DNA from: Methanobacteriota archaeon
GTDB taxonomy: Archaea > Thermoplasmatota > E2 > DHVEG-1
DNA: 64,000 nucleotides
Reading direction: 5' to 3'
Assembly: GCA_043806635.1 (NCBI GenBank)
Contig: JAZDGT010000044.1
Span: 36-64,035 of the forward strand
Of the stretch, positions 1,872 through 11,432 are shown one piece after another. Both the position numbers and the translations under genes were made by a program. Under the pieces are notes generated by a model. The model saw nothing but the letters and a program-made list of their open reading frames with translations. It searched no databases and was not told the origin of the DNA. The number at the start of each line of letters is the position of its first letter. Within the stretch, counting starts at the first letter, position 1.

Positions 1872-2275
1872 GTGTGGTTTCTGTATCTTTTAACGAGTAA
1901 AAAAAGATATATGTTTTTATATTAGATACCGAGTAGTGTTATTGTTTTTGCTTCTTAGTGTCGAGGTCGATATCGAAGAAATCAAATAAGGTTTTTTGCA
2001 TCTGCCATCACCCAATAGGCAATAATAATGAGGTAGATTATATGCTTTTCGATTTCAATGGAAGTATAGGAATATTTTTTTTCATGTGATTGGTATTGTG
2101 GCTATTTTGACATTTCGTCATTTTTTTAAGAAAACTATATAAACCAGTAATGACAAATAGTATCATGATAGTAAATATCAATATTGGGTCTTACCTCAAA
2201 AGGTGAACAACACGTACCAAAACAACGCCCTAAAAACCCTTTCTGATCAACCGTTGGTGGGAGGACGATAAACGC

Positions 2276-10342: not shown

Positions 10343-10679
10343 TACAAAATCCAGACAAATAGGAGATAAGACAGTTACGAGCTCTTTCCGGTACCATTTG
10401 TACAGAACGCGGGTACTAGATGTACAACAAGGCTTTATTAGCATAAAACAGTAAGAATCAATTGATAACTATGTTGATTGTCGGGCAAGTCTCGAGTCAG
10501 GAAGAAGTCAACGAGATAACTTTTATTGCAAAACTTGTTGTGGTTGGTCAACGAGCACGTTTTCTTGCCAGTCAACAAAAAAATAAATAAGTTTCTTTTT
10601 TCTTCTGTCCTTCATTTTCATAAATCATATTTACTTGTGGAGATATTTTTTGTACAGTTTGACATTTTGTCACGAAAGA

Positions 10680-10687
10680 TTTATATA
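10680..10687 (+). promoter_or_regulatory. TATA box (TTTATATA) with purine-rich BRE-like CGAAAG upstream
   Basis: Sits ~24-30 nt upstream of the first base of the GC-rich stem at 10711. Confidence 0.35.
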
Positions 10688-10710
10688 GAAATAATGACAG
10701 ATAATATCAT

Positions 10711-10823
10711 GCTTAGAGAGAGCCGATGGGGACTTTGGTGTCTCGTCTGTTCTGGTGAGAGCGCTGGGGGCGTTTGGCGCCTGCCGGTGGCATCTCTCTC
10801 TAGGCCCGGTTTTGCCGGTTTTT
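10711..10823 (+). ncRNA. GC-rich structured RNA candidate (three-way junction plus hairpin/T5), unidentified family; alternatively a pyrE leader or attenuator
   Basis: Closing stem 10711-10722 / 10794-10805 (12 bp including one GU). Hairpin 10729-10744 (5 bp). Hairpin 10762-10789 (11 bp, one bulge). Then CCGG-N5-CCGG hairpin 10806-10818 followed by TTTTT (10819-10823). The local GC-rich island contrasts with the AT-rich flanks. Confidence 0.4.
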
Positions 10824-10901
10824 ACTAGCATATGTTTTTTCTATTGGGTGTTATGTAAAGGTATAAATCATTCAACTCTATTTACCGGTGGGGATTTCAA
10901 G

Positions 10902-11432
10902 ATGAAGAAGGAAGAACTTATCCATCTTCTTAAGGAATGTAAAGCGATACAGTTTGGACATTTTATTCTCACCTCAGGGGCAACAAGTGACTACTATATT
11001 GATATAAAAAAAGCGAGTACAAACCCAGATATTCTTAAAAAAATTGGAGAAGCCATGTCGGAATATACCGAAGGATATGATGTGCTCGCAGGTATGGAGC
11101 TTGGTGCGGTCCCTCTTGTGGTTGCGCTCTCGTTAGAAACTGGTATCCCTTATGTGATTATTCGAAAGGAAAAAAGGGAGCACGGAACTGGAAAACAAAT
11201 CGAGGGGGGAGACGTGACTGATAAACATGTGCTGATTGTTGAGGATGTGACGACAAGCGGCGGATCAGTAGTCAAGACTATTAATATTCTGCGGGAGAAC
11301 AAAGCCCTTGTTGACACCGTTGTTTGTGTGGTTGATCGAGAGAGTGGAACCCAAGAGAAAATGAACAACTTGGGAATACAATTTATTCCGTTACTCAGTG
11401 TGAGTGATATCTTAAAAGAGAAACAACATTAG
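10902..11432 (+). CDS. pyrE: Orotate phosphoribosyltransferase
   Basis: Start moved to the ATG at 10902 (MKKEELIHLLKE...). FGHFILTSGATSDYYID and PRPP-binding loop LIVEDVTTSGGS. Confidence 0.9.
   Translation: MKKEELIHLLKECKAIQFGHFILTSGATSDYYIDIKKASTNPDILKKIGEAMSEYTEGYDVLAGMELGAVPLVVALSLETGIPYVIIRKEKREHGTGKQIEGGDVTDKHVLIVEDVTTSGGSVVKTINILRENKALVDTVVCVVDRESGTQEKMNNLGIQFIPLLSVSDILKEKQH

Follow-up and report, generated by a model that had tools for sequence, protein, structure and literature searches.

In bacteria, free-standing small RNAs (sRNAs) of the protein-sequestering CsrB/RsmY/RsmZ type carry hairpins that repeat one short loop motif, GGA, and the number of repeats varies between species. 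A short motif is also repeated in several loops of RsaE and RoxS of the Firmicutes, where it is C-rich and pairs with Shine-Dalgarno (SD) sequences. The iron-responsive element (IRE), found in the untranslated regions (UTRs) of mRNAs and bound by IRP/aconitase, places a conserved apical hexaloop, CAGUGN, exactly 5 bp from a single bulged C on the 5′ side, above a lower stem of free sequence. In archaea, sRNA154 and sRNA162 of Methanosarcina mazei, which we take to be comparable intergenic, trans-acting sRNAs, have a TATA promoter of their own and an oligo-T stop, are probably controlled by specific transcription factors, occur at the level of a genus and act by pairing. To our knowledge, very few conserved structured regulatory RNAs have been described in archaea, and hardly any of these come from lineages without cultured members. 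Here we analyzed a 64,000-nt stretch of DNA (the window; positions 36 to 64,035 of the forward strand of contig JAZDGT010000044.1, assembly GCA_043806635.1) from a Methanobacteriota archaeon of the GTDB lineage Thermoplasmatota, E2, DHVEG-1, whose assembly comprises 83 contigs and 1.93 Mb and is 86% complete. An element at 10711-10805 on the + strand, upstream of the orotate phosphoribosyltransferase gene pyrE, is very probably the gene for a structured RNA of ~95 nt that is specific to one uncultured Thermoplasmata family. This RNA family was previously uncatalogued; it belongs to the general class of free-standing regulatory RNAs, and its modular architecture is distinctive.

The original prediction, made from the DNA letters before any database search, had drawn by hand a three-way junction in a GC-rich island behind a TATA box, and all of the parts that it listed are present. 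The GC content of the element is 0.54-0.57, against 0.26-0.38 in its AT-rich flanks and 42.5% in the whole genome. Folding with ViennaRNA gave essentially the same structure on the + strand, with a minimum free energy (MFE) of -54.9 kcal/mol over 121 nt compared with -42.0 ± 3.3 kcal/mol for dinucleotide shuffles (z = -3.89), and none of 200 shuffles folded as well; the - strand folded worse (-34.7, z = -2.8). The RNA is a junction of three helices, P1, P2 and P3. In the closing stem P1, residues 10711-10722 pair with 10794-10805 over 12 bp, one of them G-U, a pairing supported by covariation in the family. The P2 arm (10725-10747) includes the proposed first hairpin (10729-10733 with 10740-10744) and has the apical loop UUUGG(U) at 10734-10739. 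The P3 arm (10757-10793) includes the proposed 11-bp hairpin (10762-10772 with 10778-10789), and consists of a base GAGAG/CUCU, a lower stem CGCUGG/CCGGUG, a single bulged G at 10783, a 5-bp upper stem GGGCG/CGCCU and the pentaloop UUUGG at 10773-10777. A terminator-like hairpin, CCGG-UUUUG-CCGG, followed by five T residues occupies 10806-10823; of these, the hairpin is not conserved. The MFE fold contains a further small hairpin in its middle (10749-10762) that lacks conservation; the corresponding stretch of relatives supplies the 5′ strand at the base of the second long arm. Two entries in the list of open reading frames (ORFs), 10526-10828 and 10755-10901, cross the element, and neither matches a protein family, in line with the earlier view that they merely run through it. 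The RNA gene accounts for both, and neither should be annotated as a gene.

BLAST-type DNA searches gave only three relatives (L047, L039 and G095) and just one homologue in 108 genomes of the family, and covariance models were needed. A first model, R1, was built from four sequences, those of the window, L047, L039 and G095, and a second model, R2, from 32 of the matches to R1. R1 found full-length matches in 61 of the 108 family genomes, and R2 found matches in 73 of the 107 other family genomes, mostly at E < 1e-9. The window RNA itself scored 88.1 bits with R1 and 66.3 bits with R2 (E = 6.5e-19), where the E-values given by the models are rough. The RNA spans ~30 genera of the one family, and several genomes hold two or three copies. 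Outside the family, R2 found no match in 10 genomes from two other families of the order or in 83 genomes from other families of the class, and gave a single borderline match (22 bits, 52 nt) in 141 other genomes of the phylum. Within the family, some genera lacked the RNA in the genomes searched (0/5, 0/5 and 0/3). All of these genomes are metagenome-assembled genomes (MAGs), and absences are therefore soft.

Conservation and covariation in relatives had been put forward in the original prediction as a check on the fold, and both were found. In an alignment of 73 distinct homologues fitted to R2, a procedure that favours pairing statistics, 95% of the cells form standard pairs, and compensatory double changes occur in 22 of the 23 modelled pairs. 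None of 500 column shuffles attained any of five measures, and sliding the 3′ partners by 1-3 columns reduced pairing to 28-50%. MFE folds of single sequences, which do not depend on the model, gave P1, P2 and P3 in the same arrangement, with both arms tipped by UUURR, in most members. All 9 modelled pairs of P1 show compensatory changes and 91.6% of its cells are paired, while its sequence is free across the family, as seen in GCCUAGAG, GGUAUGUG and GUAUGUUG. Pairing reaches 98.1% in helix 2 (P2), with compensatory changes in 5 of 6 pairs, and 94-99% in helices 3 and 4 (P3), where 8 of 8 pairs show such changes.

Both arms end in one and the same module. This consists of a lower stem with no fixed sequence, a bulge in the 3′ strand made of one purine or sometimes of 2-3 nt, an upper stem of 5 bp with the consensus R-G-R-Y-A/U-R-Y-C-U, and a UUURR pentaloop; the G-C and A-U pairs of the upper stem hardly vary. 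At its base, P3 usually reads GGAG/CUCY. No other unpaired bases of the RNA are as conserved as the loops: of 146 loops, 94 were UUUGG, 17 UUUGA, 12 UUUAG and 4 UUUAA, and 87% fit UUURR. In the window RNA, P3 carries a good, GC-rich copy of the module, and P2 is a slightly degenerate one, with a UUUGGU hexaloop and a register shifted by one base. The number of modules is not fixed in the family. A 54-nt version, consisting of P1 and one module, lies behind the same promoter, and a version of ~149 nt carries three UUUGG hairpins.

An archaeal sRNA gene generally has its own promoter, with a TATA box and a transcription factor B recognition element (BRE) at about -27, and an oligo-T terminator, and the element fits this description, with both features conserved across homologues. 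Its TATA box TTTATATA (10680-10687) starts 31 nt upstream of the first paired base, and the purine-rich sequence CGAAAGA is found immediately 5′ of it, at the position of a BRE. A TTTAWATA-like box starts at -31 from the first paired base in 46 of the 73 distinct homologues, and 54 of the 73 have a run of at least five T residues within 30 nt downstream, compared with A runs in 11 of the 73.

Two readings had been offered in the original prediction, an independent small RNA and a pyrimidine-responsive leader or terminator of pyrE. The first is upheld by the promoter, the oligo-T tract, the unrelated contexts of the homologues and the covariation, and the second did not survive the comparison. 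As a leader, attenuator or riboswitch, the structure would sense pyrimidines and terminate transcription before pyrE. Its position in the window fits this idea: pyrE (10902-11432, + strand; Pfam Pribosyltran, E = 8e-16) is a neighbour and not part of the element, with its ATG at 10902, 79 nt after 10823 as had been noted, and the element is found at the same position in L047 and L039, so that in all three it lies 90-100 nt upstream of pyrE and T runs follow it. However, pyrE has a TATA box of its own, TATAAAT at 10862-10868 within GTATAAATCA (10861-10870), which lies outside the RNA gene, between the terminator and the ATG. The box is conserved even where the element is missing: in dozens of relatives with no RNA gene at this place, the same (A)AATTATAAATCA box precedes the pyrE ATG by ~30-40 nt. 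Moreover, only 3 of the 73 distinct homologues adjoin pyrE and the remaining 70 lie elsewhere in the genome. No alternative antiterminator pairing is conserved, and Rfam gave no match to a PyrR site or a riboswitch at the gathering score and only chance-level matches at E ≤ 10. We therefore give control of pyrE virtually no weight; the RNA is very probably the product of a free-standing gene, and would act in trans.

The other homologues adjoin unrelated genes, encoding a CitMHS transporter, a C25 peptidase or surface proteins with PKD/fn3 domains; in G095, for example, the element lies between a zincin-like gene and a CitMHS/ArsB-type transporter. Conservation of neighbours was seen within genera only, with a secreted C25 peptidase in one genus and the PKD/fn3 proteins scattered. 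In the window, the neighbourhood comprises genes for a PaaK-like ligase, a permease, pyrE, purD and a GPN-loop GTPase. The pyrE sequence is 64-84% identical to pyrE of Thermoplasmata, Thermoplasmatales and Thermoplasmatota MAGs, including SG8-52-3 and SM1-50, MAGs that belong to Marine Benthic Group D; the family that carries the RNA is Marine Benthic Group D-like.

We then compared the RNA with known families. Rfam 15 gave no match anywhere in the window at the gathering score, and at E ≤ 10 the region 10500-11000 showed chance-level matches only, such as Giardia U6, which scored 18 bits where 100 is the gathering score. Twenty diverse members of the family had no Rfam match at E ≤ 1, and no description of the RNA was found in full-text and preprint searches. 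A strongly promoted three-way junction of ~100 nt could in principle be a divergent housekeeping RNA (tRNA-like, 5S rRNA, the Alu part of the signal recognition particle (SRP) RNA, or RNase P RNA) or a guide RNA missed by the models, and the UUUGG pentaloop is identical to U33-G37 of the anticodon loop CUUUGGA of the genome's tRNA-Gln(UUG). About one third of U-NNN-R loops would match some tRNA, however, and this likeness is therefore treated as a lead only. ARAGORN found no tRNA in the window, and Rfam no tRNA match around the element even at E ≤ 10. The alignment of 73 sequences shows no conserved C (RUGAUGA), D (CUGA) or ACA boxes, and there was no Rfam match to a guide RNA, in agreement with the earlier failure to recognise a tRNA, 5S rRNA, SRP RNA, RNase P RNA, or C/D or H/ACA boxes by eye.

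The 5S, SRP and RNase P readings were rejected because canonical copies exist. The source assembly (G000) contains a canonical 5S rRNA (RF00001, 76 bits) at G000:C17:24821-24940 and an archaeal SRP RNA (RF01857, 207 bits) on G000:C38, and the RNase P RNA (RF00373) is present in two relatives, G008 and G002, that also carry the small RNA. The archaeal RNase P RNA model found nothing in the source assembly or in the single-contig relatives G072 and G101, and these blanks probably reflect incomplete or masked assemblies. In addition, the small RNA is confined to one family and absent from whole genera within it, which makes a housekeeping or guide role highly improbable. Outside the window, ARAGORN reported a 91-nt tRNA-like gene of undetermined type with a four-base anticodon (gtag) at G000:C76:15049-15139; this may be an intron-containing tRNA.

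Analysis of the promoter showed two further conserved elements. An upstream element, TGACATTTTGTCA (10660-10672), consists of two TGNCA half-sites 8 bp apart, which here form a palindrome, and half-sites of this kind (TTGTCGTTTTGTCA, TTGACATTCTGACA or TTGCCATTTTGCCA) recur upstream of the TATA box in most homologues, with the same spacing to it. A proximal, operator-like element, AATGACAGATAATATCAT (10693-10710), contains the dyad ATGACA-N5-TATCAT and runs up to the predicted start site, with T at -1 and G at +1; the consensus AATGAYARANNNTAWCAT directly precedes the RNA in most homologues. In the 108 family genomes, the 18-mer proximal element has 119 exact matches, compared with 33 for a reversed control. 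A likeness of this element to a Fur box, judged by eye, was dropped as too weak in AT-rich DNA.

The source genome contains exactly two exact copies of the 18-mer, one before the RNA and one at 2149-2166, also in the window. The second copy (AATGACAAATAGTATCAT, + strand) is part of a similar unit, in which an upstream element TGACATTTCGTCA (2108-2120, + strand) resembles that at 10660-10672 and a TATA box lies at ~2135-2143 (+ strand). Behind a leader of ~110 nt, this unit encodes a 35-amino-acid single-pass membrane peptide, MPAIAIILIGFVAGLFAMIVINIYKQVFKTMKKDL (2276-2383, + strand), which resolves an ambiguity of strand at this locus in favour of the peptide. Members of the family have this peptide in a conserved length of 33-36 amino acids and in the form MPAMAMVLIGFGAGLF.M.I..LYK...; it belongs to no Pfam or NCBIfam family. 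A short upstream ORF (uORF) usually precedes the peptide gene, its stop codon abutting the ATG of the peptide. Of 20 matches to the 18-mer inspected in other genomes that do not precede the RNA, most drive this unit of uORF and small peptide, which is also found in genera without the RNA.

In the window and in G008, the gene directly upstream of the small-peptide gene encodes a membrane-tethered ArsR-type regulator (1083-1868, + strand in the window; HTH_5, E = 2e-11; two transmembrane helices). In many relatives (L031-L102) the genes for the ArsR-type regulator and pyrE are divergently oriented and flank a GTTCGGAAATTTCCGAAC palindrome, and the source genome and two relatives have the small RNA gene upstream of pyrE in place of the regulator. 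On the basis of the shared promoter motif and this adjacency, the RNA appears to belong to a small, membrane-themed regulon, an assignment drawn from sequence and gene order.

Two observations were made on this promoter element in other genomes. In one genus (L255-L257 and L040-L043), a palindrome of ~36 bp, AATGACAAATAATATCAT|GATATAATATATCATT, is centred on the start site of the peptide gene; the proximal promoter element forms one part of it, and the first 17 nt of the peptide transcript form the other. This makes it probable that in that genus the operator extends across the start site and the peptide mRNA starts with a hairpin. At L244, L250 and L251 (G010, G093 and G094, from genera without the RNA), the element precedes AT-rich transcripts starting GGTAGTG... 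or GATAGTG..., which may be further members of the regulon.

The explanation that we favour for the whole locus is a free-standing, family-specific sRNA whose modules serve as binding sites, which acts in trans as a decoy or scaffold, and whose synthesis is conditional; we put its probability at roughly 0.45. The RNA would act on targets other than pyrE, and its repeated, sequence-conserved modules would be putative binding sites, most likely for a probably oligomeric protein. The fixed spacing of 5 bp between loop and bulge, the conserved pairs of the upper stem and the repetition of the module in variable number all favour a protein partner. The RNA would titrate or scaffold this candidate protein in the manner of the CsrB/RsmZ-type decoys. 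Synthesis is taken to be conditional because the promoter shares its operator-like signature with the membrane-peptide gene beside the ArsR-type regulator. The decoy mechanism taken by itself is an argument by analogy, and we hold it tentatively, at somewhat less than even odds.

The analogy with CsrB, RsmY and RsmZ is closest in the general design. As in those RNAs, several hairpins of a free-standing small RNA carry the same loop motif in variable number (here 1, 2 or 3 modules), and transcription appears, from the promoter sequence, to be under a dedicated regulator. Unlike them, the archaeal RNA has UUURR loops instead of GGA, only 1-3 repeats, and a conserved 5-bp stem with a bulge. It has no sequence or Rfam relationship to the class, so that the likeness is one of mechanism, with protein binding presumed, and not of membership. 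No CsrA-like partner is known in these archaea, though a partner protein was not searched for. The module itself resembles an IRE, with its conserved apical loop exactly 5 bp from a single bulged base and its free-sequence lower stem. However, its apical loop is a UUURR pentaloop, its bulged base is a purine in the 3′ strand, and it occurs in a free-standing RNA; this analogy is architectural only.

Several observations weigh against the favoured explanation. There is no conserved neighbour gene beyond the genus level, and none points to a binding protein. Outside the RNA, the family genomes contain 17 extra exact matches to the module, all in coding-like sequence without the promoter of the RNA and none in mRNA leaders, and there is thus no sign of a wider regulon of the protein; on viral contigs the module 17-mer matched 8 times, and none of these matches was the RNA. 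The lengths of P2 and P3 do not covary (r = 0.07), and a fixed two-site geometry is therefore not demonstrated. The regulator's own promoter carries a different palindrome, and the link of the regulator to the RNA is gene adjacency and a shared motif only. Finally, the loops also fit the YUNR U-turn motif that is typical of RNA-RNA recognition.

This last point underlies the main rival, a base-pairing sRNA in which the UUURR loops would be YUNR-type U-turn loops that start kissing contacts with target RNAs. All frequent loop variants (UUUGG, UUUGA, UUUAG, UUUAA, UUAGG, UUAAG and UUGAG) keep Y-U-N-R, at the level of sequence and with no U-turn geometry implied. The strong conservation of the loops as unpaired bases is also what such a role would predict, and repeated identical loops are known from target-pairing sRNAs, including RsaE and RoxS, as YUNR U-turn loops are from bacterial antisense RNAs. 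However, the archaeal loops are composed of U and purines, and no class of complementary targets was found. Just 3-5 nt per loop are available, and exchange of G and A at loop positions 4 and 5, seen in 33 of the 146 loops, would break pairing with a fixed CCAAA target. Around 1270 SD-supported start codons in the source genome, this complement shows no enrichment. RNAduplex predictions against the peptide mRNA in 7 genomes, a weak test made with no limit on length, did no better than shuffled sequences (z from -1.4 to +0.2). A pairing seed would also require neither the conserved stem sequence nor the fixed bulge. The M. mazei sRNAs share with our RNA the intergenic location, the TATA promoter, the oligo-T stop and probable control by a specific transcription factor, but there is no homology, and the present RNA extends over ~30 genera and has a repeated module. 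We consider base pairing possible but rather unlikely, and prefer a protein-binding decoy or scaffold.

The UUURR loops could instead touch each other, within or between molecules, through antiparallel U-R pairs, giving a compact, self-contained particle that might sense an ion or a ligand. The guanidine-II riboswitch (mini-ykkC, RF01068) offers a loose parallel, with two similar hairpins whose identical conserved loops are able to touch; it differs in its ACGR tetraloops, its location in 5′ UTRs, its lack of a closing stem and its bacterial distribution, and the archaeal RNA has no match to its model. The UUURR sequence is self-complementary if wobble pairs are allowed, and for 63 of 69 loop pairs at least 4 of the 5 U-R pairs are possible; such compatibility is, however, near-automatic for any two U-U-U-R-R loops and so provides no real test. 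All 6 RNAs with a purine at position 3 of one loop keep a U in the other, and the arms are similar in mean length (14.9 ± 2.5 bp for P2 and 15.5 ± 2.3 bp for P3). Against this, the contacts would be weak, consisting solely of G-U and A-U pairs, the individual arm lengths are uncorrelated, versions with one module exist, and a free-standing RNA has no gene to control. A self-contained fold thus seems improbable, and the decoy or scaffold remains our preferred account.

A bolder form of this preferred account is that the RNA would be the first protein-sequestering decoy of archaea, CsrB- or 6S-like, a multivalent RNA that uses its 1-3 identical UUURR modules to titrate an RNA-binding protein, itself dimeric or oligomeric, and that is switched on together with the membrane peptide by the membrane-tethered ArsR-type regulator. 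We regard this full scheme as unlikely, if attractive. In a more exotic variant, the modules might mimic the anticodon arm of tRNA-Gln(UUG) and trap a tRNA-handling enzyme, in the way that ThrRS is captured by the thrS operator.

Taken together, these results describe an RNA whose covariation is unusually clean, across ~30 genera of a globally abundant group of sediment archaea, and whose module resembles a ligand-binding site and is present in a copy number that varies between species. The RNA could enter the RNA family databases, which would end the spurious annotation of ORFs in such intergenic regions. The sequence of the module, the operator in the promoter and the candidate regulator together offer a concrete, testable entry into post-transcriptional regulation in archaea that still resist cultivation. 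If the RNA is indeed a decoy that is switched on with the membrane peptide by the ArsR-type regulator, post-transcriptional control in these uncultured Thermoplasmata of sediments would be tied to a signal from the envelope.

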